The position numbers and the translations under genes are program-made. Shown one piece after another: positions 6,315 to 62,819 of a DNA stretch of 64,000 nucleotides. The DNA comes from Patescibacteria group bacterium (GTDB taxonomy: Bacteria; Patescibacteriota; Minisyncoccia; Portnoybacterales; UBA2143). The notes below the pieces were generated by a model. That model worked only from the letters and a program-made list of their open reading frames with translations, had not been told where the DNA came from and ran no database searches. The stretch lies in assembly GCA_018830295.1 (NCBI GenBank), contig JAHJSM010000002.1, forward strand, positions 14,598 to 78,597, given 5' to 3'. Within the stretch, counting starts at the first letter, position 1, and every line of letters begins with the position of its first letter.

Positions 6315-6426
6315 ACCACAAGAAATAGCCGCGCTGTTTGTAATTTTGACGGGCAAACAAACCAAAAACTACTTCTAAAGAACAGGAGTAGTTTTAGCTT
6401 TTGTAATTGCGCGCTGGGTGTATAAC

Positions 6427-6457
6427 GGGGGCTGCCCCCGCCGCGGGGGCAGCCCCC
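6427..6457. repeat. GC-rich paired palindrome GGGGGCTGCCCCC-GCCGC-GGGGGCAGCCCCC (repeat family copy 1)
   Basis: perfect 13-nt inverted arms; identical copy at 62789-62819. Confidence 0.8.
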
Positions 6458-6810
6458 AAGCAAGTTCCCTAATTTATTCCCAGTGAGCAGTTACATCTTT
6501 TTTAATTGACTTTTTGGGTGAAAGATTGTAGTTTGTTGTATGGGTTTATAAGCACATTAACATTAAAATAAAGGGGGTATAATATGCCAATGTCAGATGA
6601 TTTTAGAGAGAGATTGCGGGGAATTTTGCCGGAGATAATTAGAATTTTCAAGACGCCTTTTATCCTTTATGACGAGAAAGGAATCCGAAATGGATTTAGA
6701 AAAGTGTTTGAAAACTTTGAAGGCGTGATTCCTTTGATGACTATTTTTCCACACTGTCAGGAGGCAGTGTCGGAGCGATTTTTAAACCATGGAAATTATA
6801 GGAGGATAAA

Positions 6811-7998
6811 ATGGCGAGAGAAAGCAGATTGCCGAAAGGCGGAGAAAATCTTTTTCAGGAAATAAAAAGAGTGTGTTTGGAAGCGGAAGCGAAGGGCGTA
6901 AAATTGTTTCGGCTTTCTATTGGACAGCCGACGGGTCCGGCTTTATTGAGCGCGAGAGAAGGCGCGGCAGAGGCGATTATGAGCGATGAAGAGTCAATGC
7001 ATGAGTATCAGGATAATGGCGAGCCGGGAGTTCCCGGTTTTAGCAAAGCGTTTGTCCAGGCAAATGTGGGGGATTTTGATTTATCGTCTATTGACGATAT
7101 CGCGTATTTGCCAATTCCTGGCATTAAACCGATGCTTGGGCTGATTCCGATGGCGTGTGGGGAGAAAGTTGTTGTTCAAACAATGACGAAACCGGGCTAT
7201 CCCACGCCAGGTGTTTGGTGTGATTATCTTAATCTTCCAAATGAACCAATTTATTTTGCCTCATGGAGCAATTTTAGATTTGACCCCAACAGGAAGGTTT
7301 GTTCTGATGTAACTAATTTGTTAATGCTTAACTATCCTCATAATCCATCTGGGCAAATTGCGACGAAAGATTGGTGGAATGATTTGTGTATATTTTGCTA
7401 TAGGCGCGGTATCCGCATATTCAATGATGCGGCATATGCCATGCTGGCTCATTCATCGGAGGCCTGCACTTTAACTGAGGTGGCCGTTGGTTTTCCAAGT
7501 CTTTCATGGGCAGAGGCCTTTTCCGCTTCCAAGATGATTGGCAATGGGACCGGCTGGCGGATTGGAGCAATGGTTGGTTCGCCTGATTTTATTGGAGACA
7601 TTGCGACGATTAAGGGGAATACTGACAGTGGGTTTAATGCGGCGTTGGCAACGGGCGTTTTGCGGGCAATCAAGGAAGATATAGGAACCGTGCGTTTGGT
7701 TGGGTTAAAATACAAAGAGCGAATCAATCGTCTTATGCTTCTTTTAACTCAAAGAGGGATGCAATTAGCGGTGGAACCAAAGGCGGGATTTTTTACCCTT
7801 TGGAAATGTCCCAAAAGGGCATTTGGCGAGGAGGTCCGAGACGCGAAGCATTTTAACTTTATGATGATTGAGCGGACGGGTATCGTTGGGGTTCATTTTG
7901 ACCCATATATCAGATATGCTGTCGTTGCTCCGATTGAAAATCCGGAATTTATGAAGGCGATTAAAGCGGCCTTTGACGAAGCGGAGGTAGAATATTAA
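6811..7998 (+). CDS. class I/II PLP-dependent aminotransferase, LL-diaminopimelate aminotransferase (DapL)-like
   Basis: N-terminal GENLFQEI...KLFRLSIGQPTGP resembles the DapL N-terminal signature; NPSG; SKMIGNGTGWRIG (PLP lysine context); RBS AGGAGG 8 nt upstream. Confidence 0.65.
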   Translation: MARESRLPKGGENLFQEIKRVCLEAEAKGVKLFRLSIGQPTGPALLSAREGAAEAIMSDEESMHEYQDNGEPGVPGFSKAFVQANVGDFDLSSIDDIAYLPIPGIKPMLGLIPMACGEKVVVQTMTKPGYPTPGVWCDYLNLPNEPIYFASWSNFRFDPNRKVCSDVTNLLMLNYPHNPSGQIATKDWWNDLCIFCYRRGIRIFNDAAYAMLAHSSEACTLTEVAVGFPSLSWAEAFSASKMIGNGTGWRIGAMVGSPDFIGDIATIKGNTDSGFNAALATGVLRAIKEDIGTVRLVGLKYKERINRLMLLLTQRGMQLAVEPKAGFFTLWKCPKRAFGEEVRDAKHFNFMMIERTGIVGVHFDPYIRYAVVAPIENPEFMKAIKAAFDEAEVEY

Positions 7999-8001
7999 AA
8001 T

Positions 8002-8034
8002 AAATGGCGGGACAAATAAGTTCCGCCATTTTTT
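8002..8034 (+). terminator. intrinsic terminator hairpin AATGGCGGGAC...TTCCGCCATT plus T-tract after the aminotransferase
   Basis: 8-bp stem followed by TTTTT; a second TTCGGCTT-TGGTAA-AGCCGAA hairpin at 8034-8058. Confidence 0.55.
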
Positions 8035-8142
8035 AATTCGGCTTTGGTAAAGCCGAATGGTTGGAGGATTGATTTTTGGGCGGGGAGGGGGTAAAATATA
8101 GGATATAAACTTAAAAGCAAGGGCTATTGACATATATCATAC

Positions 8143-8523
8143 ATGATATACAATAATAAGTATAAAGTTTTTTATTACTGTAATGGACGAAATAAACGGG
8201 CGCCGGTTTTTGAATATATTAAAAAATTGTCGTCGAAAGATAGAGCAAAAGTTTTTAAGTATATTGATTTTCTTAGAGACAACAAGGGAGTGTTAGATGA
8301 GCCATACTCTAAACATATCAAAGACAAGATTAGAGAGTTGAGGGTAGATTTTTCTCGAAACAGGCATCGTGTTTTTTATGTGGTTGTGATAGAAAAGAGA
8401 ATTATTCTTTTAAGCGCCTTTTTCAAGAAAACATCTAAAACGCCAAAACAAGAAATTATTAGGGCATTAAATAATTTTGAAGATTATAAAGTAAATAAAA
8501 GTTTAATTGAATATGAAAAATAA
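8143..8523 (+). CDS. type II toxin, RelE/ParE superfamily (HigB/Gp49-like)
   Basis: 126 aa; KIRELRVDFSRNRHRVFYVV resembles the HigB/Gp49 core; overlaps the downstream XRE antitoxin gene by 17 nt (toxin-first order as in higBA). Confidence 0.5.
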   Translation: MIYNNKYKVFYYCNGRNKRAPVFEYIKKLSSKDRAKVFKYIDFLRDNKGVLDEPYSKHIKDKIRELRVDFSRNRHRVFYVVVIEKRIILLSAFFKKTSKTPKQEIIRALNNFEDYKVNKSLIEYEK

Positions 8524-8815
8524 AATTAAAAAAATTACATATTTGTCTTTTGATAAGCATCTTGCCGAGGAATTAAAAAATCCTGAATTTAAGAAGTATT
8601 ATAATGAATACGGCAAGCAGTTGGAGATTGCTTATCAAATTTTGCAATTAAGGAAAAAGAGCAAAATGTCTCAAGCGGAATTGGCTAAGAAAATAGGGAC
8701 AAAACAAAGCAATATCGCTAGAATGGAAAAAGGTCAGCAAAATTTTACGACTGAGACGCTTCAGAGAATCGCTTCGGCTCTTGGTCGCGAGTTGAGAATT
8801 GAATTTGTAAAATAA
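8507..8815 (+). CDS. XRE-family HTH antitoxin (HigA-like)
   Basis: MSQAELAKKIGTKQSNIARMEKGQQNFTTETLQRIASALG is a canonical XRE helix-turn-helix. Confidence 0.6.
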   Translation: MNMKNKIKKITYLSFDKHLAEELKNPEFKKYYNEYGKQLEIAYQILQLRKKSKMSQAELAKKIGTKQSNIARMEKGQQNFTTETLQRIASALGRELRIEFVK

Positions 8816-8817
8816 AT

Positions 8818-10617
8818 ATGAACTCAAAGGAAATTAGGCGGAGGTATTTGGAATTTTTTGAGGCGAGGGGGCATCGCGTTATTGGCGGGGCTTCTTTGAT
8901 TCCTGAAAATGATTCTTCCACGCTTTTTATCGGTTCGGGGATGCAGCCGCTTATACCGTATTTGCTTGGCGAAAAACATCCGAGCGGGACGCGGTTGGTT
9001 AATTCGCAGAAATGTTTTCGGGCGGAGGACATGGAGGAGGTGGGGGATAATCGCCACAATACTTTTTTTGAAATGCTTGGTAATTGGTCTTTGGGCGACT
9101 ATTTTAAAGAGGAGCAATTGGGATGGCTTTTTGAATTTTTAGTTGATGAATTAGGGTTTGACCCGTCGCGGATTTATGTTTCGGTTTATGGAGGGAATGA
9201 GGAAATTGGCGTTCCGAAGGATTTGGAGTCGGTTGAGATTTGGAAGAAATTGTTTGAAGGAGAGAGGATTTTCTATTACGGCGACGAGAAAAATTGGTGG
9301 TCGCGTTCGGGCGTTCCAGTTAAGATGCCTGTCGGCGAGCCAGGAGGACCCGATAGCGAATTATTTTACGATTTGGGCGCTCATTTGAAGCGGCATGAAA
9401 ATTCTGTTTGGAAAAATCAGCCCTGCCATATTAATTGCGATTGCGGGCGGTTTATTGAAGTTGGGAATAGTGTTTTTATGGAATATATCAAGACGGAAAA
9501 GGGCTTTGAAAAATTAAAACAAAGAAATGTTGATTTCGGCGGGGGACTGGAAAGAATGGCAATGGTGGCGCAAGGGAAGGATAATGTTTTTGAAACAGAT
9601 TTGTTTGTTAATATTTTGAATAAAATTGAGGAACTTTCGGGGGGCAAAAAATACAGGGATAATATGAAGTCGTTTGAGGTGATTGCCGACCACATTAAAG
9701 CGGCCGTCTTTATTATCGGTGATACGCGAGGCGTTTTACCGTCAAATCTCGGGCAAGGATATGTCGTTAGGCGGTTGATTCGCCGCGCGATTAGGTATGG
9801 TAGATTATTGGGAATTGACGGAGGCGACTGGATGAAAAAATTGGCAGCGGTTGTTTTGGACGACTACAAAGATGTTTATCCTGAATTAGACAAGAAAAGG
9901 GAATTTGTGATTAAAAATATAGTAGAAGAAGAAGAAAAATTCAGCAGGACGATAGAGAGAGGGTTGAAAGAATTTGAAAAAGTGGCGGGGGGCAAAATCA
10001 GCGGAATGGACGCTTTTAATTTGTATCAGAGTTATGGTTTTCCGATTGAAATGACGCGCGAGTTGGCGGAAGAAAAAGGGCTGGAAGTGGATGAAAATGG
10101 ATTTGGCGAGGAACTTAAAAAACACCAAGAACTGTCGCGAACTGCTTCGGCGGGCGAATTCAAAGGCGGGCTGGCGGACGCGGGCGAGGAAACTAAAAAA
10201 CTACACACGGCGGCGCATTTGCTTTTAGCGGCCTTGAGGAAGGTCTTAGGTGAGGGCGTGGAGCAAAAGGGAAGCAATATCACGGCGGAACGATTGCGGT
10301 TTGATTTTTCGTATTCGGATAAAATGACGGACGAGCAGAAAAAAGAAGTTGAGGATTTAGTCAACGAAGCGATTAAAAAAGATTTACCGGTAGTTTGCGA
10401 AGAAATGTCTTTGGAGGAAGCGAAAAAATCTGGCGCGGTCGGCGTTTTCGAATCCAAATATGGAGAAAAAGTTAAGGTTTATAAAATCGGAGATTTCTCA
10501 AAAGAAATTTGCGGAGGTCCGCATATAGAGCGAACAGGCGAATTGGGAGGATTTAAAATAGCAAAAGAGCAAAGTTCTTCGGCTGGCGTTCGGAGAATTA
10601 AGGCAGTTTTAAAATAA
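8818..10617 (+). CDS. alaS: alanyl-tRNA synthetase, compact form lacking the C-terminal C-Ala domain
   Basis: N-terminal RYLEFFEARGH...SLIP.NDSSTLF class II AlaRS signature; editing domain HTAAHLL...CGGPH; only 599 aa. Confidence 0.85.
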   Translation: MNSKEIRRRYLEFFEARGHRVIGGASLIPENDSSTLFIGSGMQPLIPYLLGEKHPSGTRLVNSQKCFRAEDMEEVGDNRHNTFFEMLGNWSLGDYFKEEQLGWLFEFLVDELGFDPSRIYVSVYGGNEEIGVPKDLESVEIWKKLFEGERIFYYGDEKNWWSRSGVPVKMPVGEPGGPDSELFYDLGAHLKRHENSVWKNQPCHINCDCGRFIEVGNSVFMEYIKTEKGFEKLKQRNVDFGGGLERMAMVAQGKDNVFETDLFVNILNKIEELSGGKKYRDNMKSFEVIADHIKAAVFIIGDTRGVLPSNLGQGYVVRRLIRRAIRYGRLLGIDGGDWMKKLAAVVLDDYKDVYPELDKKREFVIKNIVEEEEKFSRTIERGLKEFEKVAGGKISGMDAFNLYQSYGFPIEMTRELAEEKGLEVDENGFGEELKKHQELSRTASAGEFKGGLADAGEETKKLHTAAHLLLAALRKVLGEGVEQKGSNITAERLRFDFSYSDKMTDEQKKEVEDLVNEAIKKDLPVVCEEMSLEEAKKSGAVGVFESKYGEKVKVYKIGDFSKEICGGPHIERTGELGGFKIAKEQSSSAGVRRIKAVLK

Positions 10618-10618
10618 T

Positions 10619-11116
10619 ATGAGGCAGGTATCGCTTTGTTTGTTATTAAAAGAAAATCAGGATAAAAGAGAGATACTTTTGGCGATGAAGAAAAGGGGAT
10701 TTGGCGAGGGGCGGTGGAATGGATGCGGCGGGAAAATAGATATAGAAAAAGGAGACAAGAATGTTCTGGATTCGGCTTTGCGTGAGACGGAGGAGGAAAT
10801 AGGGGTTAAGATAAAAAATCCGGAAAAAGTCGCCATAATAGATTTTCATTTTCCAGAGGTTCCAAAAGAGAAGGGCTTTGACCAGCAGGTTCATATTTTT
10901 TTAGTCAGGGATTGGGAAGGGGAGCCGACGGAAAGTGAGGAGATGGCGCCTAAGTGGTTTGGCATGGAAGAAATTCCTTTTGATAAAATGTGGGAGGACG
11001 ATAAACATTGGCTACCCTATGTTTTAGAAAACAAAAAATTGAGAGGAAAATTTGTCTTTGATAAAGAGGATAAAATAACCGAACAGGTGATTGAGTTAGT
11101 GGAAGCGGTGGAGTAG
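10619..11116 (+). CDS. NUDIX hydrolase (MutT-like)
   Basis: Nudix box GGKIDIEKGDKNVLDSALRETEEEIGV (Gx5Ex7REUxEExGU). Confidence 0.8.
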   Translation: MRQVSLCLLLKENQDKREILLAMKKRGFGEGRWNGCGGKIDIEKGDKNVLDSALRETEEEIGVKIKNPEKVAIIDFHFPEVPKEKGFDQQVHIFLVRDWEGEPTESEEMAPKWFGMEEIPFDKMWEDDKHWLPYVLENKKLRGKFVFDKEDKITEQVIELVEAVE

Positions 11117-11145
11117 ACAAAACAAAAAAAGGGAGAGATTAAAGA

Positions 11146-11176
11146 TGGGGGCAGCCCCCGCAACGGGGGCTGCCCC
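11146..11176. repeat. GC-rich paired palindrome GGGGGCAGCCCCCG-CAA-CGGGGGCTGCCCCC (repeat family copy 2; terminator-like after the NUDIX gene)
   Basis: perfect inverted arms flanked by GAT/ATC, extending the palindrome to 17 nt per arm. Confidence 0.8.
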
Positions 11177-11230
11177 CATCGGGCAATTAAAGGTCGGGGA
11201 GGGGGATATAAATATAAATAAATAAAAAAT

Positions 11231-12052
11231 ATGAATATAGATAAAATTGTTGAGATTAATGAGAAAATTAGGAAGGTGGACGGGAAGAAGATTGTTTCTC
11301 GGATTATTATCGGGCTGTTTCTTTTTATGCTTTTCTTTGGCGCTTTTGGGACGATTGGCGCGGGGGAGCGAGGGGTTTTGCTTCAATTTGGAGCGGTTAA
11401 AGATAAAGTTTTTGGCGAAGGGTTGTATATTAAAATTCCTTTTGTCCAGCAGGTGGTTACAATGGATGTCAAACTTCAGAAAGATGAAATTCCGGCGAGC
11501 GCTTCTTCTAAGGACTTGCAGATTGTGACATCAAAAATCGCTTTGAATTATCATTTAGATCCAGCATCGGTTAATAGGGTTTGGCAAGAAGTGGGGAAGA
11601 ATTATAACGCTCGGATTATCGCGCCATCTATTCAGGAAGCGGTTAAAGCGGAAACAGCCAAATTTACGGCGGAGGAGTTGATTACGAAAAGAGAAATAGT
11701 CAAAGAGCAGATTAAAGCAAATCTCGCAGAAAGATTATTAGAGAATTCTATTATAGTTGACGAATTCAATATTATTGATTTTAGTTTTTCAGCGGCGTTT
11801 AACGACGCGATTGAAGCGAAGGTGACCGCGGAGCAGTTGAAGTTGAAGGCAGAAAGAGATTTGGAGAGAATTAAGATTGAGGCGGACCAGAAAATTGCTG
11901 AAGCGGAAGGAAAGGCGATTGCGATTAGAATTGAAGCGCAAGCGCTTTTACAGAACGCCAAAGTGGTTGAGTTGCGATGGATAGAAAAATGGAATGGCGA
12001 AGTCCCTCAATACTGGGGGCAAGCAAGTCCGTTTATCGGACTTAATCAGTAA
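11231..12052 (+). CDS. SPFH/band-7 (prohibitin/HflC-like) membrane protein
   Basis: N-terminal TM followed by an SPFH-like core and a long Ala/Glu-rich coiled coil (AEQLKLKAERDLERIKIEADQKIAEAEGKAIAIRIEAQA). Confidence 0.7.
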   Translation: MNIDKIVEINEKIRKVDGKKIVSRIIIGLFLFMLFFGAFGTIGAGERGVLLQFGAVKDKVFGEGLYIKIPFVQQVVTMDVKLQKDEIPASASSKDLQIVTSKIALNYHLDPASVNRVWQEVGKNYNARIIAPSIQEAVKAETAKFTAEELITKREIVKEQIKANLAERLLENSIIVDEFNIIDFSFSAAFNDAIEAKVTAEQLKLKAERDLERIKIEADQKIAEAEGKAIAIRIEAQALLQNAKVVELRWIEKWNGEVPQYWGQASPFIGLNQ

Positions 12053-12061
12053 AATAAGAAT

Positions 12062-12400
12062 ATGGAAAAGTATATAGAAAAAAGGCCTTGGGGGAGGTTT
12101 GAGAGGTTTTGTTTGAATCAACTTTGCACAGTGAAGATGATTTTTGTTTTGCCGGGGGAAGAGTTGAGTTTACAGAGGCATAATAAGAGGAGCGAGTTTT
12201 GGAGAGTTATTCGCGGCGGGGGAGAAATAACGGTTGGCGAGGCGGTTAAAAAAGCGGAAAAAGGAGAAGAATTTTTTATTGAGAAAAAAGCGAAGCATAG
12301 GGTTAAAGCGGGAGAAAAAGGAATTGAGATTTTGGAAATTTCTTTTGGGGAGTTTGATGAGGAGGACGAGGAGAGGTTAGAGGATAAGTATAAGAGATAA
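12062..12400 (+). CDS. cupin-domain protein (mannose-6-phosphate isomerase type II C-terminal-like)
   Basis: KRPWGRFE...VKMIFVLPGEELSLQRHNKRSEFWRVIRG matches the PMI-type cupin signature; stop overlaps the start of the downstream glycosyltransferase (ATAATG). Confidence 0.55.
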   Translation: MEKYIEKRPWGRFERFCLNQLCTVKMIFVLPGEELSLQRHNKRSEFWRVIRGGGEITVGEAVKKAEKGEEFFIEKKAKHRVKAGEKGIEILEISFGEFDEEDEERLEDKYKR

Positions 12401-14961
12401 TGCCGCAAAATAATAAGAAGACAATTTGTTTTGTCCACTATGGGATTGGTTGGAGAGATGGGGTGAATACAGTTATTAAGACCTTGGTTGATGGAATTCA
12501 GGAGGAGAATCCGCGGCTTGGGTTTCGTTTTATTGGAGGAGAAGTGAAAGAGCGATTTTTGGAAGGGGCTGATTATATAGAAATTCCCGAACTTTTGCCA
12601 GTAGAAGATGATTTAAATAAAAGCGAAATTGAAAAAAGGGGATTGGCGATTGCTCAAAAAATTGCCGAAGCGACAGAGGGGTCTGATGTCGTAGTAATTG
12701 AAAATCCTTTTGTCGGTGAATATCATTTGTCGGCAATGCTTGGTTTTTCTATTTACGCGAAGCAATTTAAGCCGTCTGGAACAAAAATATTTTTTAGAAT
12801 TCACGATTTGTATGTTGATAGTCCGCATTATCGCGACGGAGCGTGGAAATCTTTTTCTTCTTCGGAAATTGAAAATATTGTTAGGGGCGAAGGAGTTGAT
12901 GGTTTTTTAATCATTAATCACGAACTGAAGGAAAAATTAATTCAGGAAGGAGTTGCGGCAGAAAAAATATTTTATCTTTCAAATGGCGTTGATGGAGAAA
13001 AATTTAATCAACGATTAGAAAGCGAGGAGACCGAAGCAATTCGCGCGGGGCTGGGAATTTCAGACAAAGAGGCGAAGATTTTACTTTATCCTGTGCGAGT
13101 CGTGCCGAGAAAAAATATTGAAGAGGCGATTCTGCTTGTTAATTATGTTCGTCAAATTACGGGCGAAAACTATATTTTAGTTGTTCCAGGAAAAGTTGAT
13201 AAGTATGACCCCTTGAGCCAAGGTTATTATGATGTTTTGGAAAAAATTGTCTTGGTGGCCGGCTTTCCGATTATTTTTACAAAAAAGCCTTTGCCTTTGA
13301 AAAGAAGATACAGCGCGTCAGGGGCAGTTGAAGAGTATAGCGTTGGTGATTTATATCAAGCGTCTTTTGCTACGGTCATGACTAGTTTAAGAGAGGGGTT
13401 TGGTTATCCATTTTTAGAATGTTGGTTCGCGGGGAAAATTGTTGTTGGGCGAAGAATACAAAATATTGTTGACGATTTTGAAAAAAGCGGACTTTCTTTT
13501 GAATGGCTTTATGATAATTTTTTGCTTAATAATAGAGATGTCGTAAACGCCGAAGATGAGAAAAGTTTTAAGAGGGCAAAAAGGGTTTTGGAAATTTTTA
13601 GGGACAAGGAGCTGAAGGAGCGGATATTGGAGTTAAATAAAGATGATGTTTTGAAGCAAGTTGAAGTTTTGCGGGATAGGACGCGACGGGAGAAAATCAT
13701 TAAGGAGAATTTGGAGGCGGCTAAAAATATTTATGAAGTGTCGGAGGTCGCGAAACAATTTTTAGAGTTAATACAGGGGGCTGCCCCCGTTGCGGGGGCA
13801 GCCCCCTTGGGACATTACAAAAGTTGCGAGATTGTGGTTGGAATTCCTTCATATAACGAGGCGGATTCCATTTCTAATGTCGTGAAGGTGGTTGATGAGG
13901 GGCTTGTTAAATATTTTAGCGGTCGGCGGGCGGTGATTATTAACAGCGATAATAATTCTTCGGATGGAACGAGCGAAGTTTTTTTAGGGGTTAAAACGAA
14001 GACGCCTAAAATATATATTTCCACGCCGCCGGGCGTTAAAGGAAAGGGAAATAATTTTAGAAATTTATTTTTGAAAATGAAAGAATTGGGCGCGGACGCG
14101 ACGATGGTTGTTGACGCTGATTTGAAAAGCATTACTCCAGAATGGGTAAAATGTTTAATAGAGCCGATGATGGACGGCTATGATTACATCACGCCGATTT
14201 ACGCGCGCGATAAATATGACGGGTCTATTACGAATCATCTTTGCTATCCTATAGTTTATGGACTTTTGGGATATGATATTCGCCAACCGATTGGCGGGGA
14301 TTTTGGGTTTTCGGGGAGGATGGCTGATTACTGGCTGGAGCAAGAATGGACAGAGGAAGTTGGGAAGTTTGGAATTGATATTTTTATGACTATGAACGCG
14401 ATTAAGTTTGGCGCGAAGTTAGGACAGGTTGATTTGGGATTTAAAATTCATAAAACCAGCGCTCCGAAATTGGATAATATGTTTTTAGAAGTCGCGAGTT
14501 CTCTTTTTTCGTTTTTACCCAAAGAGAGAGCGGCGGAAATTCAAAAACCTCCCTTGGTTTGTAGTATTAGCGATGAAGAGGGTTTTTCTTTGGATGATTT
14601 TAACCAAAAAGAAAGTACGGCTCGCGAAAAAGAGGAAATTAACGAGAAAATAGCGGTGGAGTTTAAGGAGAATTATAGCGTTTTGAAGTCGTTTATTCCC
14701 GAAGAAATTCGCGTTGGTTTAGAGCGAGAGTTTTTTGAGGAAAAATCTTTTGGGATAGACGGCGAACTTTGGGCGAAATCGGTTTATTGTTTGTTGGGCG
14801 CTTTTAGGGATGGCGCGGATAAAAAGGCGGTATTAAAATTGTTAAGAGCGCTGTTTTTCGCGAGGAGGAATGTTTTTGTTGAGGAGATTAGAGGTAAGAG
14901 CTATAATGATTTAGAAAAGATAATTCAAAGAGAGGCGAATTATTTTTTGGATTTGTTGTAA
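12400..14961 (+). CDS. fused glycosyltransferase: N-terminal GT4-like domain plus C-terminal GT2/GT81 glucosyl-3-phosphoglycerate synthase-like domain, joined by an in-frame copy of the GC palindrome repeat
   Basis: GT4-like EGFGYPFLECWFAGKIVVG; C-terminal half CEIVVGIPSYNEADSI...DADL (DxD)...IGGDFGFSGRMADYW resembles GpgS/MpgS-type GT2; linker QGAAPVAGAAPLG encoded by the repeat at 13776-13806. Confidence 0.6.
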   Translation: MPQNNKKTICFVHYGIGWRDGVNTVIKTLVDGIQEENPRLGFRFIGGEVKERFLEGADYIEIPELLPVEDDLNKSEIEKRGLAIAQKIAEATEGSDVVVIENPFVGEYHLSAMLGFSIYAKQFKPSGTKIFFRIHDLYVDSPHYRDGAWKSFSSSEIENIVRGEGVDGFLIINHELKEKLIQEGVAAEKIFYLSNGVDGEKFNQRLESEETEAIRAGLGISDKEAKILLYPVRVVPRKNIEEAILLVNYVRQITGENYILVVPGKVDKYDPLSQGYYDVLEKIVLVAGFPIIFTKKPLPLKRRYSASGAVEEYSVGDLYQASFATVMTSLREGFGYPFLECWFAGKIVVGRRIQNIVDDFEKSGLSFEWLYDNFLLNNRDVVNAEDEKSFKRAKRVLEIFRDKELKERILELNKDDVLKQVEVLRDRTRREKIIKENLEAAKNIYEVSEVAKQFLELIQGAAPVAGAAPLGHYKSCEIVVGIPSYNEADSISNVVKVVDEGLVKYFSGRRAVIINSDNNSSDGTSEVFLGVKTKTPKIYISTPPGVKGKGNNFRNLFLKMKELGADATMVVDADLKSITPEWVKCLIEPMMDGYDYITPIYARDKYDGSITNHLCYPIVYGLLGYDIRQPIGGDFGFSGRMADYWLEQEWTEEVGKFGIDIFMTMNAIKFGAKLGQVDLGFKIHKTSAPKLDNMFLEVASSLFSFLPKERAAEIQKPPLVCSISDEEGFSLDDFNQKESTAREKEEINEKIAVEFKENYSVLKSFIPEEIRVGLEREFFEEKSFGIDGELWAKSVYCLLGAFRDGADKKAVLKLLRALFFARRNVFVEEIRGKSYNDLEKIIQREANYFLDLL
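13776..13806. repeat. GC-rich paired palindrome GGGGGCTGCCCCC-GTTGC-GGGGGCAGCCCCC located in frame inside a CDS (repeat family copy 3)
   Basis: translates as GAAPVAGAAP between the two glycosyltransferase domains; the same repeat elsewhere is intergenic. Confidence 0.8.
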
Positions 14962-15045
14962 AACTTAAAATGGTGTATAATTTAATAAGGTCGTACTAAA
15001 TTTAATAAATAAAAAAATAAAAAAATAAAATAAATAAACAAAAAT

Positions 15046-15756
15046 ATGAAAAAAATATTTATCTATACAGTTATTAGTTCGTTTGTTTTTGTCGCTCTTT
15101 GCTCGGTGGTTTATGGAGCGAACACAAATCAAGGAGATCAAACTCAAAATCAAGATCAAACCCAAACACAAGATCAAACTCAAACTCAAGACGGAGAAGG
15201 CATAATGATAATGACCCAAGAAAGACAACAGATTAAAGCTCAAACAAAGGTTGAGTTAAATCAAATGATACAAGAGAGAAAACAGGAAATGGATCAAGAG
15301 ATGGACGAAACAGAGGAAGATATTAAAGGAGTTTATCAAAATCAAAATCAAGTTAAATTAATGGTTCATTCTTTGCTTGCCTCCGAGGAATTGGTGGGTG
15401 GTATTGGTCCACAAGTTTCCGAAGTCGCGCGCGGGTTTAATAATTCGGTTCAGGCGACAATTCTGGCGGAGGAGAAAATTAATTCAAGAAGCAGATTGGT
15501 CAAGTTATTTATGGGCGGGGATGATGAGGCGGCAGATGAAATAGAGCAAGAAGTGAACGCGAATCACGCAAGAATTATGACGCTTAAGCAATTAATGACA
15601 CAATGTGAATGTGATGAAGAAGTTAGAAACACAATACAGGAGCAGATAATGAATACTGAACAAGAGCAGATTAGATTAGAGGAATTAGCTGCTGGCGAGA
15701 AAGCGAAAAAAGGATTATTTGGTTGGATGAAGAATATTTTTAGGTTTGGGAGGTAA
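15046..15756 (+). CDS. secreted low-complexity/coiled-coil protein (QDQTQTQ repeats)
   Basis: signal peptide MKKIFIYTVISSFVFVALCSVVYG; Q/D/T/E-rich repeats. Confidence 0.4.
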   Translation: MKKIFIYTVISSFVFVALCSVVYGANTNQGDQTQNQDQTQTQDQTQTQDGEGIMIMTQERQQIKAQTKVELNQMIQERKQEMDQEMDETEEDIKGVYQNQNQVKLMVHSLLASEELVGGIGPQVSEVARGFNNSVQATILAEEKINSRSRLVKLFMGGDDEAADEIEQEVNANHARIMTLKQLMTQCECDEEVRNTIQEQIMNTEQEQIRLEELAAGEKAKKGLFGWMKNIFRFGR

Positions 15757-15761
15757 AAAAT

Positions 15762-16703
15762 ATGACTCAACAAAATAACGCGGCGAAATATGCTTTCTTC
15801 TATATGCTGTCTTTGGTGTCTTTGATTTTTATGTCCTTGGCGACGGGGATGATTGTTTTTCAGATTATCAATAAAAAAATAGTGGATGTAATCCAGTCCC
15901 GCGGTCAATTTTCGTCGGACCAGTTAAAATTCGCGATTTCGGCTTTAATAGTTTCGGCTCCTATTTTCTATATCACCGCGAGGCAGATTTTCAAGAATTT
16001 ATTTTCAGGCGCTTTAGACAAAGATTCTCAAATTCGCAAATGGCTGACTTATTTTATCTTGCTAATTTCTTCGGTCGTGATGACAGGGTGGCTTATCGCG
16101 GTTGTTAATGCTTTTTTGGACGGCGAATTAACTCTTAAATTTATCTTGAAGGCCTTGACGGCTATTGGCATCGCGGCGATTGTTTTTACATTTTATCTTT
16201 ACGATATTAAACGGGAAAATGTGATGGGAGCGAAAGATAATGTGATTCGGGCGTATTTTTACGGTTCGTTGGCAATTGTGATTGCTGTTTTTGCTTCGTC
16301 TCTTTTTATCGTGGAATCGCCGACAGCAACAAGGGATAGAAAAATGGACAATGAGGTTTTGTCAAAATTACAGAGTTTAGATAATTCTATTAGAAATTAT
16401 TATCTTGAAAACGAGAAATTGCCTGTTGATTTTGGAGAATTGATGGCGGAGTTTAGTTATTTGGGCTATTTGGGCGATAAAGATTTTGAGAATTCTGCGA
16501 CTGGCGAAAGGTTTGAATATATAGTTAAGGAAGAAAAAACTTTTGAACTTTGCGCTAATTTTAGAATATCCAATGAAGACGAATCGGATATTTCTCATGA
16601 CATTTACGGCAAAGAGTGGAGGCATGACGCGGGTCGTCAATGTTTTGAGCGGAAAATCAGAGAGACAGATATTATAGGCGAGCCGAGATTAAAAATTGAT
16701 TAA
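15762..16703 (+). CDS. integral membrane protein, unknown function
   Basis: about 5 predicted TM helices followed by a soluble C-terminal domain. Confidence 0.4.
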   Translation: MTQQNNAAKYAFFYMLSLVSLIFMSLATGMIVFQIINKKIVDVIQSRGQFSSDQLKFAISALIVSAPIFYITARQIFKNLFSGALDKDSQIRKWLTYFILLISSVVMTGWLIAVVNAFLDGELTLKFILKALTAIGIAAIVFTFYLYDIKRENVMGAKDNVIRAYFYGSLAIVIAVFASSLFIVESPTATRDRKMDNEVLSKLQSLDNSIRNYYLENEKLPVDFGELMAEFSYLGYLGDKDFENSATGERFEYIVKEEKTFELCANFRISNEDESDISHDIYGKEWRHDAGRQCFERKIRETDIIGEPRLKID

Positions 16704-16708
16704 ATTTT

Positions 16709-17503
16709 ATGTGGGAACAGATTGTTTTGGGCATTGTTCAAGGGGTTGTTGAGTGGTTGCCGGTTAGTTCGGAGGGCGTTATCTTTTTGGTCATTAAGAA
16801 TTTTTTTGACGCAGAGGCAGGAATGGGCGCGATTATTCATCGCGCCCTTTTTCTTCACTTAGGCACTTTTCTCGCCGCCTTGGTTTATTTCCGCAAAGAT
16901 GTCGCCTCATTATTTAAGGCGTTATTTAATTACAAATCATCTGATTTAGAAACGAAGAAGATTTTTAATTTTCTTTTGACCGCTACTCTGATTAGCGGTT
17001 TTTTAGGTTTTGTTTTAGTTAAAGCGTTTATCGTGTTAGAAGAGCAATTGGTTTTATCAGCGCAAGCGGTTACCGCGGCGGTCGGTTTACTTTTACTGAT
17101 TACGGGCTGGCTCCAAATAAAAACGAAAAAAGACGGAGTTAAAAAAGTTAAAGAATTAAGCGGAAGGGACGGGATTTTGCTTGGGTTGGTTCAGGGGTTC
17201 GCGGCGTTGCCTGGGTTGTCGCGTTCAGGGCTAACCGTCTCGGTTCTGCTTTTGAGAAAATTTAGCGGGGCAAGCGCTTTAAAGTTGAGTTTTCTAATGA
17301 GTTTGCCGATTGTTTTGGTCGGCAATCTTGTTTTAAATTTTAACGACTTCGCCTTTTCAAAAGAAGCGGCAGTCGGATTATTTTTCGCTTTTCTTTTCGG
17401 GATTTTAACCATTGACCTACTTCTAAAAATAGCCAAAAAATTTGAATTCGGCTGGTTCGTCTTGGGTTTTGGTATTTTGGTTGTTCTGTCGGCGATGGTT
17501 TGA
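16709..17503 (+). CDS. uppP: undecaprenyl-diphosphatase UppP/BacA
   Basis: WLPVSSEG (WLPVSSSGH-like) and PGLSRSGLT (PGxSRSG) BacA motifs; polytopic membrane protein. Confidence 0.8.
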   Translation: MWEQIVLGIVQGVVEWLPVSSEGVIFLVIKNFFDAEAGMGAIIHRALFLHLGTFLAALVYFRKDVASLFKALFNYKSSDLETKKIFNFLLTATLISGFLGFVLVKAFIVLEEQLVLSAQAVTAAVGLLLLITGWLQIKTKKDGVKKVKELSGRDGILLGLVQGFAALPGLSRSGLTVSVLLLRKFSGASALKLSFLMSLPIVLVGNLVLNFNDFAFSKEAAVGLFFAFLFGILTIDLLLKIAKKFEFGWFVLGFGILVVLSAMV

Positions 17504-17507
17504 GATT

Positions 17508-17577
17508 AATTCGGCTATAGGATAGCCGAATTATTTGCGGCTGGGTCTGAATGACTTGGCCGCTTTTTTGTTTTTTG
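17508..17577 (+). terminator. tandem hairpins after uppP: AATTCGGCTATAGGATAGCCGAATT (family hairpin), then GCGGCTGGGTCTGAATGACTTGGCCGC plus T-tract
   Basis: perfect inverted repeats; second hairpin followed by TTTTTTGTTTTTT. Confidence 0.6.
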
Positions 17578-17737
17578 AGGGGTTTAAATCACAATTCAAG
17601 GTCAGACCTTCTGAGCGCGACCTTCGGAAATGTCGCTACTCGAAAGGTCTGACCTTTAATTGCTGAGAGCGACTTTTGAGGACTAATACTGGGGATAATT
17701 TGTTGTTTTTGGTTGGGTTTTGTGGTAGAATTTTTAT

Positions 17738-18235
17738 ATGGCTTCTAAGAAAAAATTGGTTAAGGAGTTGGAGGGGTTGACGGGGCGGTTTATTGAGCCG
17801 AAGGGGAGAGGCGCGCTTTTTGCTTCTTTGGAAGGGGATAAGACGGAGTGGTTTCAGTGGGTCTCGCAGATGAGAATGGTTTTGAAGGGACTAGATAAGG
17901 CGGACGCTTTGAAGTTTTCAGGGTTTTTATTGCTTTTGGAGAGGGACGCCGAAAGTCGTTTTCATCAGGATAATTTAAAAAAGTTTTTAATAGAGAAAAC
18001 GGAATTTTATAAATATTACGATTTTGATTTGGATAAGGAGTTGAATAAGCAGAAGATAGCGAGGAAAAATCTTTGGACGAGCAAAATTTTAAGGATGTTT
18101 ATTAGTCGTTCTTTTTTGGGGATTTTGATTTTGGCGATGGTTCTTGGGTTTATTGGTTGGTTTTACGCGGATAAGGAGAGTTGTTTGGAATTTGTTCAAA
18201 AGGTTGTCGGACCGTTTTTTAAGGCAATAAATTAA
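17738..18235 (+). CDS. hypothetical protein with C-terminal TM segment
   Basis: ORF with extended -10 TGTGGTAGAAT ending 8 nt before the ATG (possible leaderless transcript); no recognisable domain. Confidence 0.35.
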   Translation: MASKKKLVKELEGLTGRFIEPKGRGALFASLEGDKTEWFQWVSQMRMVLKGLDKADALKFSGFLLLLERDAESRFHQDNLKKFLIEKTEFYKYYDFDLDKELNKQKIARKNLWTSKILRMFISRSFLGILILAMVLGFIGWFYADKESCLEFVQKVVGPFFKAIN

Positions 18236-18238
18236 GAT

Positions 18239-18269
18239 GGGGGCAGCCCCCGTTGCGGGGGCTGCCCCC
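18239..18269. repeat. GC-rich paired palindrome (repeat family copy 4)
   Basis: GGGGGCAGCCCCC-GTTGC-GGGGGCTGCCCCC flanked by GAT/AT. Confidence 0.8.
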
Positions 18270-18289
18270 ATTAGATAATTAATAAAAAT

Positions 18290-19090
18290 ATGAAAAACTT
18301 TTGTAGGGAAGATTTTAAAAATTGCGGGCATAAGGTTTTATGCGCGCTGGCTGGTGTTTTGATTTTGTTTTTGGGGGTTTTGACTGTTTCGGCCGCGGTT
18401 GGGATTAGCAATAAAATCAAAGAAGGGAGATACATTGGGCAGGAAATAGAATCAAAAAATACGATTACTGTTTCGGGGCAGGCGGAGGTTTATGCCAAGC
18501 CGGATTTGGCTTTGGTTGTTTTTTCGGTTGTGACAGAAGCGAAAACGGTCGCGCAGGCGATGACGCAAAACACTTCTAAAATGAATGCGGTGATTGATTC
18601 TGCGAAGGGGATGGGCGTTGAGGAGAAGGATTTAAAAACAACATCTTTTAATATTTATCAGCGATATGAATATCGGACGAGCAGTCTTTATCCATCAGGG
18701 AATAGGGTTTTAGTTGGATATGAGGTTTCGCAGTCGCTTCAGGTCAAGATTAGGGATTTAGGGAAAATCGGGCAAATTATTGAAGGGGCAACTGACGCGG
18801 GGGCGAACCAGGTTGGAAATTTACAATTTACGATTGATGACCAAGACGCGCTAAAGGCGCAAGTAAGGGAAGAGGCGATTAAATCGGCGCGCGCGAAGGC
18901 GGAGAAAATAGCCGATGAACTTGGAGTGAGCTTAGTTCGTATTGTTGGGTTTAGCGAAAACTTGGCGGCGGTTCGTTATGATTACGCTTTGAAGGCGGAG
19001 GCCATGGGCGGAGGGGGAGAGGTTCCGCAGATAGAGACGGGGGAGAATAAGGTGGAGACGACGGTGAGTGTTGTTTATGAGATTAATTAA
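18290..19090 (+). CDS. SIMPL/DUF541-domain secreted protein
   Basis: N-terminal TM/signal; DUF541-like core (ITVSGQAEVYAKPDLALVVFSV...GYEVSQSLQVKIRDLGKIGQII). Confidence 0.6.
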   Translation: MKNFCREDFKNCGHKVLCALAGVLILFLGVLTVSAAVGISNKIKEGRYIGQEIESKNTITVSGQAEVYAKPDLALVVFSVVTEAKTVAQAMTQNTSKMNAVIDSAKGMGVEEKDLKTTSFNIYQRYEYRTSSLYPSGNRVLVGYEVSQSLQVKIRDLGKIGQIIEGATDAGANQVGNLQFTIDDQDALKAQVREEAIKSARAKAEKIADELGVSLVRIVGFSENLAAVRYDYALKAEAMGGGGEVPQIETGENKVETTVSVVYEIN

Positions 19091-20673
19091 TGAAAAAAAT
19101 TATTATCATTATTAGTATTATCATTATTTTGACTGGGGGGTATTTTGCTTATCAAGGTTTTTTTGGCGAGGGGGATTCCGCTTATGAAACAGTTGCTGTC
19201 GCGCGCGGAGAGATTATTCAGAATGTTTCGGCTACGGGGACGGTTGTGCCCGCGAAGCAGATTGATTTACAATTTGAAAATTCGGGAAAGATTAACAAGG
19301 TTGAAGTCGGGATTGGCGACAAGGTAGTCGCGGGGCAGGTTTTGGTTCGACTCAATGTCGCGGAATTAAGCGCTCAAATTCAGTCGTATTACGCCGCTTT
19401 GAATATCGCGCAGGCGAAGTTGGCGCAGATTTTAGCGGGCAACAGGGAAGAAGATATTCGAATTTACCAAACGGCCGTTTCGAATGCTGAAGTTGATATT
19501 GTCAATAAAGAACAGGCCTTGGACGATGTGGAAATTGACGCTGAGAATGATTTAGAAGAAGCATACGAGGACGCGTTGGATGCCGTAAAAACATCATACA
19601 CGAAAGCCGACAAGGCGCTTTTAATTACTTTTGCCGAAATAAAGGAAGAATATTTTAACGGCAACGACCAAATTGACTCTAATGTTAAGAGTTGGGAGCA
19701 AATTGCTAAAAATGATTTAAGTTCGGCAAAGACCTACAATAATATTGAGGCGGTTTTGGAAGAGATGAAATCGGCGTTGACTACGATTAGGGACGCTTTG
19801 GCATATTTGCGGCTGGCGATGAATGACGCAAGCGTTAAAAGTTCTGTTTCTTCAACGCATAAGACAAGCGTTGATACAGAGAGGACGAATATTGATACAG
19901 AAATAGTCGCTCTGACTGCGGCTGAACAGGGGATTAAGTCGGTCGCGATCACGAACCAAATAAACATTAATGCCGCGCGCGCCGATTTAGTGACGGCGGA
20001 GTCGGTTCTTCAAAAAGCCAAGGACGAATTGGCTTTGAAAAAAGCGGATCCTCGCCAGACCGATATTGATTTGGCAGAAGCGGAAATTAAACAGGCGAGA
20101 GCGAATATTTTGCAAATTCAGGAAAAAATAAATAAAAATATTTTAAGAGCGCCGACCGATGGAACTATTACCGCGCTCGCAAAAGAGGAAGGGGAGATAG
20201 CTGCGGCAAACTCAACGGTTGTCTCTATGATTAATTCGGGACGATTTCAAATTGAAGCGAATATTTCAGAAACGGAAATCGCCAAGGTTGATTTGGGCGA
20301 CAAAGTGGAAATGACATTGGACGCTTTGGGTCCTGCGGAAAAATTTGTCGGAGAGATTATTAAAATTGACCCGGCGGAAACAATTATTTCGGGCGTGATT
20401 TATTATAAAATTACTTCTGTTTTTGATGTAGAGGATGGAAGAATTAAGTCGGGGATGACGGTTAATCTTGATATTCAGACCGACAAAAAAGAGAATGTTC
20501 TTTATTTGCCGTATTATGTTGTTAAAGGTATAAACGGCGATAAATTTGTTAATCTTCTGAAAGATGGGGAAGTTGTTGAGCTAATTATCAAAACCGGTTT
20601 GGAAGGCGAGAATAGAATTGAAATTGTTGAGGGGCTGGAAGAGGGGGAAGAAGTGGTAATGGAGGCGCGATAA
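19090..20673 (+). CDS. HlyD-family periplasmic adaptor / membrane fusion protein (MacA-like)
   Basis: N-terminal TM; biotin-lipoyl-like GTVVPAKQIDLQFENSGKINKVEVGIGDKVVAGQVLVRLN; long coiled coil; C-terminal beta-barrel region. Confidence 0.7.
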   Translation: MKKIIIIISIIIILTGGYFAYQGFFGEGDSAYETVAVARGEIIQNVSATGTVVPAKQIDLQFENSGKINKVEVGIGDKVVAGQVLVRLNVAELSAQIQSYYAALNIAQAKLAQILAGNREEDIRIYQTAVSNAEVDIVNKEQALDDVEIDAENDLEEAYEDALDAVKTSYTKADKALLITFAEIKEEYFNGNDQIDSNVKSWEQIAKNDLSSAKTYNNIEAVLEEMKSALTTIRDALAYLRLAMNDASVKSSVSSTHKTSVDTERTNIDTEIVALTAAEQGIKSVAITNQININAARADLVTAESVLQKAKDELALKKADPRQTDIDLAEAEIKQARANILQIQEKINKNILRAPTDGTITALAKEEGEIAAANSTVVSMINSGRFQIEANISETEIAKVDLGDKVEMTLDALGPAEKFVGEIIKIDPAETIISGVIYYKITSVFDVEDGRIKSGMTVNLDIQTDKKENVLYLPYYVVKGINGDKFVNLLKDGEVVELIIKTGLEGENRIEIVEGLEEGEEVVMEAR

Positions 20674-20677
20674 AAAT

Positions 20678-21394: not shown

Positions 21395-21395
21395 C

Positions 21396-22628: not shown

Positions 22629-22638
22629 GGGATGAAAT

Positions 22639-23898: not shown

Positions 23899-23900
23899 TT

Positions 23901-24488: not shown

Positions 24489-24496
24489 CCAGTAAA

Positions 24497-24526
24497 TGGG
24501 GACTGTCCCCAAGAGGGGACAGTCCC
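24497..24526. repeat. GC-rich paired palindrome variant GGGGACTGTCCCC-AAGA-GGGGACAGTCCCC (repeat family copy 5)
   Basis: perfect inverted arms between UDG stop and mnmA start. Confidence 0.8.
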
Positions 24527-24536
24527 CATTTTAAAA

Positions 24537-28050: not shown

Positions 28051-28057
28051 CTAAGAC

Positions 28058-28090
28058 GGGGGCAGCCCCCGAGGACGGGGGACTGCCCCC
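28058..28090. repeat. GC-rich paired palindrome GGGGGCAGCCCCC-GAGGAC-GGGGGACTGCCCCC (repeat family copy 6)
   Basis: near-perfect inverted arms after HAD gene stop; additional single arm GGGGACTGTCCCC at 28142-28154 abutting the trpS stop. Confidence 0.75.
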
Positions 28091-36084: not shown

Positions 36085-36184
36085 GTTTGTATGTTAATAG
36101 TCATAAAGTCATACTTAAGGCAAAAAGTAGGGGATTGTTCTTTGTTTGTTTATACTCAGCGGTAACGGAGTTCTTAATTTTTAT

Positions 36185-58616: not shown

Positions 58617-58624
58617 TTAAGACG

Positions 58625-58657
58625 GGAGCAGCCCCCGAAGACGGAGGACTGCCCCCT
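58625..58657. repeat. degenerate GC-rich paired palindrome GGGAGCAGCCCCC-GAAGAC-GGAGGACTGCCCCC (repeat family copy 7)
   Basis: same subfamily as 28058-28090 (GACGGGGGCAGCCCCCGARGACGGRGGACTGCCCCC). Confidence 0.6.
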
Positions 58658-62723: not shown

Positions 62724-62756
62724 GGGGACAGTCCCTCGCCGCGAGGGACTGTCCCC
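62724..62756. repeat. GC-rich paired palindrome variant GGGGACAGTCCCTCG-CCG-CGAGGGACTGTCCCC (repeat family copy 8)
   Basis: perfect 15-nt inverted arms after tRNA-Val. Confidence 0.8.
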
Positions 62757-62788: not shown

Positions 62789-62819
62789 GGGGGCTGCCCC
62801 CGCCGCGGGGGCAGCCCCC
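62789..62819. repeat. GC-rich paired palindrome GGGGGCTGCCCCC-GCCGC-GGGGGCAGCCCCC (repeat family copy 9; identical to copy 1)
   Basis: identical to 6427-6457; followed by terminator hairpin AGCCGTTTT-ATAAAACGGCT plus T-tract at 62829-62862. Confidence 0.8.

Follow-up and report, generated by a model that had tools for sequence, protein, structure and literature searches.

How does a palindrome of a kind that is mostly seen between genes come to lie in frame inside an enzyme gene? The question is raised by a 64-kb stretch of a Patescibacteria genome (contig JAHJSM010000002.1, positions 14,598 to 78,597 of the forward strand; hereafter the window, numbered from its first base), in which GGGGGCTGCCCCCGTTGCGGGGGCAGCCCCC, a perfect 31-nt palindrome at 13776-13806 (+ strand, 0 mismatches), is enclosed in a single open reading frame (ORF) coding for a glycosyltransferase family 4 (GT4) domain followed by a GT2 domain. 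A preliminary description, made from the sequence alone, held that the repeat passes through ORF 12400-14961 without a stop or frameshift and encodes the peptide GAAPVAGAAP, and this proved exact: the palindrome matches at those very positions, its first base being the third base of codon Q459 and the next ten codons being G460-P469, and the ORF continues to a length of 853 aa, with the predicted junction peptide QFLELIQGAAPVAGAAPLGHYK. We consider it probable that a hairpin-bearing block, similar to the repetitive extragenic palindromes (REPs) of other bacteria, replaced the stop and start codons between neighbouring GT4 and GT2 genes, leaving one ORF in which the hairpin is translated as a linker.

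Separate GT4 and GT2 genes in related genomes

Outside this lineage, all of the best 120 GT2 homologues are stand-alone proteins of 242-427 aa, and so are 51 of the 52 GT4 homologues (414-509 aa for the full-length ones), the exception, P0002, being an allele of this lineage. Cupin, GT4 and GT2 follow one another as separate genes in that order in loci L001, L003, L004, L007, L008, L041 and L044, and GT4 is followed by a separate GT2 gene in L005, L009, L030, L032, L035, L036 and L039. The cupin gene is a conserved upstream partner, since the cupin-GT4-GT2 arrangement is found in most of those related loci whose sequence covers the upstream side sufficiently, L005 excepted. Twelve related loci, with 46-83% identity, have a stop and a start at the junction point, where the two genes may overlap by 4-29 nt, GT2 then being in the +1 or +2 frame (L001, L003, L005 and L030), be joined as TAA-GCG-ATG in the same frame (L007), or be separated by a spacer of 33-104 nt (L008, L009 and L041). 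The split GT4 proteins stop 2-12 residues past an FL(E/K)L motif, which is precisely where the palindrome of the window begins.

A stop and a start in orthologues at this point is what the preliminary description had proposed to look for, and it was found even in a locus 99% identical to the window (L044). The finding that it had named as contradicting a fusion at the repeat, orthologues already joined through a different linker, was sought and did not turn up in any close orthologue. An exhaustive search of 1.84 billion representative proteins yielded a single further GT4-GT2 fusion, P0167, which is 1257 aa long and 28% identical, with a different linker and, at its N-terminus, an extra stretch of hydrophobic appearance (judged by eye); this fusion arose independently. 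In other proteins this GT2 family is joined to GpgS-like GT2 domains (P0175, P0192 and P0205, whose second GT2 region is 23-25% identical to the query) or triplicated (P0128). All outgroups are split, and by this outgroup polarity the fused state would be derived and the unfused state ancestral.

Fused and split alleles in one population

Clustered with the fused protein at 90% identity is a stand-alone GT4 of 460 aa, P0319, which is encoded by contig L044 (GCA_018900215.1). This contig is 99.3% identical to the window over 11480-13764 and 100% identical over 13824-13914, and it carries no palindrome at the junction, yet an identical palindrome is present at the site orthologous to 18239. Its junction DNA reads ...CAATTTTTA AAATTGGTGGGAAAATAA ATGAAAGAAATTAATATTGATAAAATTAAGGAT TGCGAG..., which translates as FLKLVGK, a stop (TAA), an ATG and then MKEINIDKIKDCE (beginning MKEIN), with both genes in the same frame. 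The two alleles differ by a short polymorphic block (Table 1), in which the 51 nt of L044 comprise the last 5 GT4 codons, the TAA, and the ATG together with the codons that complete the first 11 of GT2. DNA identical to the fused junction was found in L006 (GCA_018899715.1), L029 (from a Joint Genome Institute (JGI) metagenome) and L045 (GCA_022013995.1, labelled Candidatus Portnoybacteria), and an identical linker peptide in P0321, which is represented by its protein sequence only. The four assemblies with the fused junction come from at least two NCBI sets of metagenome-assembled genomes (MAGs) and the JGI metagenome. The fusion has been caught almost in the act, in that split and fused alleles coexist at about 99% identity around the junction.

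The events that we favour would have run as follows. The 31-mer would belong to a REP-like family of GC-rich hairpins with 13-nt arms, GGGGGCWGCCCCC, and a 5-nt loop, whose copies in this Portnoybacteria-type genome of the candidate phyla radiation (CPR) are as a rule located a few bases past stop codons. Here a 60-nt block bearing the hairpin would have taken the place of the ancestral junction between two functionally linked glycosyltransferase genes, with the loss of the last GT4 codons, the stop and, at the beginning of the next gene, the ATG and ~10 codons of a GT2 resembling mannosylglycerate synthase (MGS) and GpgS. In comparison with L030, the nearest outgroup of the ‘TTAATA-type’, the palindrome and the adjoining TTGGGAC (38 nt) replace about 27 nt containing the ATG and the TAA, so that the net gain of 11 nt brings the +1-frame GT2 into frame. 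The three sense frames of the GGGGGCWGCCCCC palindrome are free of stop codons, as computed, and so is the reverse strand, as read by eye; this property was checked for the GGGGGCWGCCCCC flavour only. Because the hairpin is stop-free and GT2 stays in frame across the block, read-through by ribosomes should give an 853-aa two-domain enzyme, and the fused protein would be both made and active.

The order of events could also have been the reverse, with a point mutation first removing the stop codon of an in-frame TAA-ATG junction of the L044 or L007 type, and the palindrome entering the linker later. GT4 and GT2 share a frame in both of these loci, with only TAA or TAA-GCG between them, and members of the family do occur in frame inside genes and inter-domain linkers of a related MAG. 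On the other hand, no palindrome-free fused allele was seen among the 52 GT4, best 120 GT2 and best 150 representative matches, and the ATG and MKEIN codons were lost from the fused block rather than retained; a fusion preceding the palindrome is in our opinion unlikely.

The two halves of the fused protein

Pfam places Glycos_transf_1 at residues 222-354 of the fused ORF and Glycos_transf_2 at residues 480-624. The N-terminal half belongs to GT4, scoring 32.9 bits with PF00534 (cut-off 26.4) and containing the EX7E motif as REGFGYPFLE, and in Foldseek it groups with the GT4/GT-B enzymes GlgM, MshA and BshA. The C-terminal half has DAD and QPIGGD motifs, recognized by eye, and scores below threshold with the NCBIfam models for GpgS (NF010496, 44.4 bits vs a cut-off of 262) and mannosylglucosylglycerate synthase (42 vs 640), and with PF21969 MGS_GT (20.4 vs 27). 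Its nearest Foldseek match is mannosylglycerate synthase 2bo7 (TM 0.76 on target), followed by GpgS. It is a relative of both MGS and GpgS and an equivalog of neither; because the GpgS score is sub-threshold and MGS is the best structural match, ‘GpgS-like’ denotes a family-level resemblance only.

An AlphaFold2 model of the fused protein, built from an alignment of 67 sequences, consists of two confident domains (mean pLDDT 86), and the sole long internal segment of low confidence (pLDDT <50) spans residues 461-471, flanked by the final helix of GT4 (447-458) and the initial strand of GT2 (478-484). The linker is thereby predicted to be a disordered, flexible Gly/Ala/Pro segment joining two folded domains. 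The preliminary description had located it exactly between a GT4-like and a GpgS-like domain; Pfam and AlphaFold2 bear out its position, while the second label does not hold beyond family level.

The hairpin family in the window

Including the junction copy, the window contains seven copies of the palindrome family, the other six being all intergenic and near the 3′ ends of genes or of a tRNA (Table 1). They comprise four related 31-mers with up to 2 mismatches, at 6427, 11147, 18239 and 62789, and two further copies that are more diverged; 100 dinucleotide-preserving shuffles yielded 0 copies. In 5 of 5 cases in the window the 13-nt arms are paired as complementary A/T-centred units. The hairpins, with G5/C5 runs, are conspicuous because the window has a G+C content of only about 40%. 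The palindrome has a perfect stem of 13-14 bp and a loop of 3-5 nt; as RNA, the 13776 hairpin would have a stem of 14-15 bp, and its 71-nt context gives a predicted fold of -40.3 kcal/mol (z = -6.2).

Altogether, the 13-nt self-palindromes of the window that are centred on CWG fall into three flavours, GGGGGCWGCCCCC, GGGGACWGTCCCC and AAGGTCWGACCTT, amounting to sixteen 13-mers plus one unrelated palindrome, vs about 3 GC-rich W-centred palindromes expected. In addition to the sites listed in Table 1, the GGGGACWGTCCCC flavour is found at 28143. Several flavours have the core GGxCWGxCC in common.

Table 1. Coordinates of the features discussed (window numbering, unless a locus is named).
Feature	Position	Strand	Description
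Cupin / mannose-6-phosphate-isomerase-type gene	12062..12400	+	stop codon overlaps the fused-ORF start codon at base 12400
Fused ORF	12400..14961	+	853 aa; GT4 (GT-B fold) 1-459, linker 460-471, MGS/GpgS-like GT-A half ~472-853
Polymorphic block	13765..13824	+	60 nt in the fused allele vs 51 nt in L044
Palindrome	13776..13806	+	arms GGGGGCTGCCCCC / GGGGGCAGCCCCC, loop GTTGC; G460-P469 = GAAPVAGAAP in frame
Copy	6427..6457		intergenic, loop GCCGC; starts 112 nt past the stop of 5199-6314
Copy	11147..11177		intergenic; reverse complement of the 18239 copy; starts 30 nt past the NUDIX gene stop at 11116
Copy	18239..18269		intergenic, starts 3 nt past the stop of 17738-18235; identical in L006 and L044
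Diverged copy	28058..28090		between convergent genes, starts 7 nt past the stop at 28050; 3′ flank TTGGGAC, as at the 13776 copy
Diverged copy	58624..58656		starts 7 nt past the stop of 57501-58616; 5′ flank TTAAGAC
Copy	62789..62819		intergenic, downstream of tRNA-Val (ends 62707)
Sister-flavour hairpin (GGGGACWGTCCCC)	62724..62756		GGGGACAGTCCC...GGGACTGTCCCC, 5′ flank TTAAGAC
Sister-flavour hairpin (GGGGACWGTCCCC)	24498..24527		GGGGACTGTCCCC-AAGA-GGGGACAGTCCCC, 9 nt past the UDG gene stop
Sister-flavour nested hairpin (AAGGTCWGACCTT)	17598..17656		built from AAGGTCAGACCTT / AAGGTCTGACCTT
In-frame copies, Portnoybacteria MAG (examples)	L027 5246-5280; L014 561-593, 2640-2673; L015 4931-4963; L023 7899-7927; L026 6283-6317		
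Y1/HUH transposase, RAYT-type	L024 950-1540	minus	196 aa; Portnoybacteria MAG

A recurrent flank, TTAAGAY, lies directly 5′ of hairpins of two flavours (18232-18238, 28051-28057, 58617-58623 and 62717-62723, and L016 2586-2592). At the 18239 copy this flank, TTAAGAT, supplies the TAA stop of the upstream gene (18233-18235); the counterpart flank of the junction copy, TTAATACA, has its TAA out of frame. The nested AAGGTCWGACCTT hairpin, 61 nt in length, lies in the window between BacA and a gene for a 165-aa protein, and a 95%-identical copy is found elsewhere, upstream of the cupin gene, in L006 (5098-5158) and L045 (568-628); in L006, a 784-nt segment with a gene for a 207-aa protein replaces the window's element at 17598-17656.

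Given their position 3′ of genes, all other copies in the window could be compared to REPs acting as RNA stabilizers (PMC3733652), and the junction hairpin might itself be an intercistronic RNA element, a 3′ stabilizer or attenuator, with GT2 made mainly from the in-frame TTG codon at 13807, right after the hairpin. We give this possibility hardly any credence, as there is no upstream stop, so that ribosomes translating GT4 must enter GT2, the sense strand has no U-tract at the hairpin, and a Shine-Dalgarno-like sequence is not evident by eye. An intrinsic terminator was rejected as an identity for the element on the same count of the U-tract; canonical terminators occur elsewhere, e.g. at 17537-17563, and a terminator scan of 5500-25000 flagged the 11147 and 18239 copies in the antisense direction only, with weak T-runs, and left those at 6427 and 13776 unflagged. 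Rfam at gathering thresholds gave no match at any palindrome of the window. The palindrome pattern had 0 matches in a viral contig collection, leaving a phage origin unsupported. A link to the C5-cytosine methylase encoded in the window (43187-44314) through GCWGC was dropped, since the sister flavours have ACWGT and TCWGA centres.

In-frame hairpins and a RAYT-type transposase in related genomes

A pattern scan of one genome per species returned 19 stretches, 13 of them on 12 contigs of the Candidatus Portnoybacteria RIFCSPHIGHO2_02_FULL_39_12 MAG (in the range L011-L028) and three at single loci in three other Patescibacteria MAGs; the remaining three are a second stretch on one such contig and two loci with a G+C content of ~0.70, L010 and L021, which we regard as chance matches. 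In the Portnoybacteria MAG, about half of the copies lie in frame inside genes, so that the preliminary statement that the repeat is otherwise found between genes, often just after stop codons, is true of the six other copies in the window and fails in this genome. The host genes code for AlaS, LepA, MurJ, MurB, PheT, a Mur ligase and a 1200-aa surface protein, and KsgA of a Parcubacteria MAG (bin.79) also holds an in-frame copy (L020 6009-6042). The copies in LepA, MurJ, MurB, KsgA, PheT and AlaS fall within Pfam-matched regions: that of LepA (GGSPRKAGAAP) is inside the GTP_EFTU domain and that of PheT inside the B3_4 domain, and the AlaS copy adds ~8 residues relative to the L007 orthologue. 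The Mur ligase copy lies between the M and C domains. Overall, in-frame GGGGGCWGCCCCC hairpins encode GAAP, GGSP, GQPP or GLPP peptides, and annotators of CPR MAGs should expect such insertions rather than regard them as assembly errors. Streamlined CPR genomes of about 0.7 Mb are seen here to tolerate REP-like repeats in essential genes such as those for AlaS, LepA, MurJ, MurB and PheT.

The same MAG contains a candidate mobilizing enzyme. The transposase encoded on L024 scores 79.9 bits with NF047646 (REP-associated tyrosine transposase, RAYT; cut-off 80) and 47 with PF01797 Y1_Tnp (cut-off 23), and it has identical nested TTGGAGCWGCTCCAA palindromes on both sides, at 884-945 and 1545-1606; the TTGGAGCWGCTCCAA flavour is dispersed over seven loci of this MAG. 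This arrangement, in a CPR genome, is REPtron-like in its anatomy. By analogy with what has been hypothesized for REPs, the hairpins may be spread by a RAYT-type tyrosine transposase.

The 13-mers might instead be non-mobile functional motifs, serving in DNA uptake or protein binding and arranged in inverted pairs, with the junction copy arising by local mutation or gene conversion. It is true that the 13-nt arms are the only constant part of the copies in the Portnoybacteria MAG, whose loops (3-9 nt) and outer stem extensions vary, and the common core of several flavours points in the same direction. However, the arms nearly always form complementary A/T-centred pairs, in all copies of that MAG as well as in the window; the transposase in the related MAG is bordered by a sister palindrome on both sides; and the 61-nt sister element occupies different loci in different strains. 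We regard non-mobile motifs as a very unlikely explanation.

Hairpins have also accumulated at orthologous positions in other relatives. Four AAGGTCWGACCTT units follow the gene for the 165-aa protein in L007 (10344-10473), at the site orthologous to window 18239, and the GT4/GT2 spacer holds three AAGGGCAGCCCTT units in L008 (5419-5522), a small hairpin, AGGGAC-TCG-GTCCCT, in L041 (5381-5415), and several palindrome units in L042 and L043 (L042 5318-5484, flavour GAGGGCTGCCCTT). The palindromes in the spacers of L008, L041 and L042/L043 make this spacer a recurrent landing place, and both it and the 18239-orthologous site are hairpin hotspots.

More broadly, it is conceivable, if rather doubtful, that Portnoybacteria-type Patescibacteria harbour an undescribed REP-like superfamily of self-palindromic 13-15-nt CWG units (GGGGGCWGCCCCC, GGGGACWGTCCCC, AAGGTCWGACCTT, AAGGGCWGCCCTT and TTGGAGCWGCTCCAA), mobilized by RAYT, colonizing essential genes as Gly/Ala/Pro-rich loops and acting as a recurrent engine of gene fusion. 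If so, spacers would become ready-made flexible linkers, and proteins would be remodelled in these ultra-small genomes.

Weighing the replacement of the junction

Several observations weigh against the replacement of the GT4/GT2 junction by a mobile hairpin block as set out above. The change was more than the clean insertion of a palindrome: the difference from L044 extends over about 11 nt on its upstream side and 18 nt on its downstream side, and therefore recombination or stepwise change is needed. Inspection of the flanks by eye revealed no direct repeats of the kind left by target-site duplication. Pfam found no RAYT or Y1_Tnp among the ~53 ORFs of the window, a phmmer search of its six-frame ORFs with Escherichia coli RayT and the Portnoybacteria RAYT gave no match, and the RAYT of the related MAG is flanked by TTGGAGCWGCTCCAA, a different flavour from GGGGGCWGCCCCC. 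Finally, L006, L029 and L044 carry in-frame deletions of 303 nt (window 13908-14210) and 102 nt (14269-14370), a pair that removes the GT2 catalytic core including the DAD-motif segment (by eye), in fused and unfused contexts alike; these alleles suggest that GT2 activity may be dispensable in this population.

The preliminary description had suggested that two adjacent genes were fused by insertion of the palindromic element. The fusion itself stands, L044 and the outgroups being split, and insertion is right in outline; that a junction like that of L044 or L030 simply received a clean insertion was rejected, since the flanks differ and native sequence was replaced, with a net change of +9 nt vs L044 and +11 nt vs L030.

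The deletions also touch on whether the fused ORF is a working bifunctional enzyme at all, rather than an assembly artefact at the palindrome, by which assemblers can be confused, or a decaying read-through product that is losing its GT2 part. Assembly collapse is unlikely because four other assemblies share the identical fused junction. The GT2 half is full-length with its motifs in the window, L045 and P0321, with a dN/dS of 0.14 vs the stand-alone L007 gene, and the deletions are independent of the fusion because unfused L044 has them too. An artefact or a decaying ORF of this kind is, in our judgement, highly improbable. Four haplotypes can be recognized. Two are fused and have an intact GT2, one of them with a variant 3′ end; the 303- and 102-nt deletions occur in a third, fused haplotype and in a fourth, split one. 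The value of dS is 0.22 in the 3′ part of GT2 vs 0.003 in GT4, which, together with the mixture of haplotypes, indicates that the region is a mosaic shuffled by recombination.

Replacement of the junction by a hairpin block remains our preferred reading, and it offers a testable route by which selfish hairpin repeats could create multidomain enzymes, the linker being visibly a translated repeat.

Other features of the window

A low-GC island (0.33-0.40) at ~34500-48000 adjoins tRNA-Trp and contains genes for a large serine recombinase, a tyrosine integrase, RadC and the C5-cytosine DNA methylase, as well as an SF1 helicase that has a REase_MTES_1575 nuclease domain (44409-47606). The island probably represents an integrated mobile element. 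Two matches to LOOT RNA (Rfam RF03000), at 38795-38916 (-; 73.9 bits) and 47816-47941 (+; 67.6 bits), are located one within the island and the other at its edge, and an ORF of 1939 aa occupies 48017-53836. A Gp49-like (DUF891) and HTH_3 gene pair at 8143-8815, upstream of alaS, is probably a toxin-antitoxin module. The HAD-type phosphatase (Hydrolase_3, S6PP-like) at 27286-28050 could, speculatively, be a partner of cupin-GT4-GT2 in a glycosyl-glycerate-type pathway. A ribosomal protein L10 leader (RF00557, 46.2 bits) is found at 60934-61045, and from the leader and their sizes the ORFs downstream are taken as the L10 and L7/L12 genes.

Comparison with known repeat systems and gene fusions

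In-frame repeats inside essential genes are known mainly from Rickettsia and a few Proteobacteria, and a full-text literature search returned nothing relevant on palindromic or REP elements in CPR/Patescibacteria. Short GC-rich palindromes in other settings offer partial parallels. The mobile GC clusters of yeast mitochondria are GC-rich palindromes in an AT-rich genome and are occasionally in frame in a gene, and the DNA-uptake sequences of Neisseria consist of a short conserved motif that is found in inverted pairs behind genes and also within them; both differ from the window element in host, sequence and presumed mechanism.

The closest resemblance is to REPs, which are palindromes of 20-40 bp with GC-rich stems of 5-13 bp, located mostly just 3′ of ORFs, sometimes supplying the stop codon, sometimes intragenic, including in tRNA synthetase genes, and associated with RAYTs (Di Nocera et al. 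2013, PMC3733652). The window element agrees with them in size and stem, in being a GC-rich hairpin dispersed downstream of unidirectional and convergent ORFs, in having an edge that can provide the upstream stop, in the presence of several families per genome, in its in-frame copies, tRNA synthetases among the hosts, and in the RAYT-like gene flanked by palindromes in a related MAG. It differs in its arms, which are themselves palindromic and centred on CWG, in its CPR/Patescibacteria host, and in the absence of a terminal GTAG/CGTC tag, in place of which there is the recurrent 5′ flank; a GTAG/CGTC-tagged REP was rejected, as no consistent tag was found in the flanks of any copy. It also bridges two genes, and gene fusion is unmentioned in the REP survey (PMC3733652), in which the string ‘fus’ occurs 0 times.

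The Rickettsia palindromic elements (RPEs; Ogata et al. 2000, as cited in PMC10969869 and PMC3733652) were originally ~100-150 bp long (~150 bp according to PMC10969869) and code for a conserved peptide. The likeness lies in palindromic repeats of a reduced genome that sit in frame in many unrelated, seemingly functional genes and are tolerated as surface or linker peptides, and the GGGGGCWGCCCCC palindrome is indeed inserted in frame in many unrelated genes. The difference is one of sequence, which is unrelated, and of length, the window element having 31 nt and 10 residues instead of 100-150 bp; furthermore, RPE families carry the CGTC tag in the scheme of Di Nocera and colleagues (PMC3733652).

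MITE (miniature inverted-repeat transposable element), BOX, ERIC and BRE repeats form in-frame fusions with chromosomal ORFs, extending or interrupting a single ORF (Delihas 2011, PMC3184786). Like the hairpins considered here, they are small repeats extending or inside ORFs and create new peptide segments (PMC3184786), but they are 70-300 bp long with terminal inverted repeats and target-site duplications, whereas the window element is a single hairpin joining two enzymes. A MITE was rejected, no direct repeats having been noticed in flanks read by eye and no terminal inverted repeats being present around a body.

Finally, as in Rosetta-stone fusions, the two domains are separate genes in relatives, neighbouring and in several cases overlapping, and the fused form, with both in one ORF, is confined to one lineage, with P0167 as an independent GT4-GT2 fusion. 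What sets the present case apart from such fusions is that its linker comes from a repeat element, and that fused and split alleles are found together in one species-level population.

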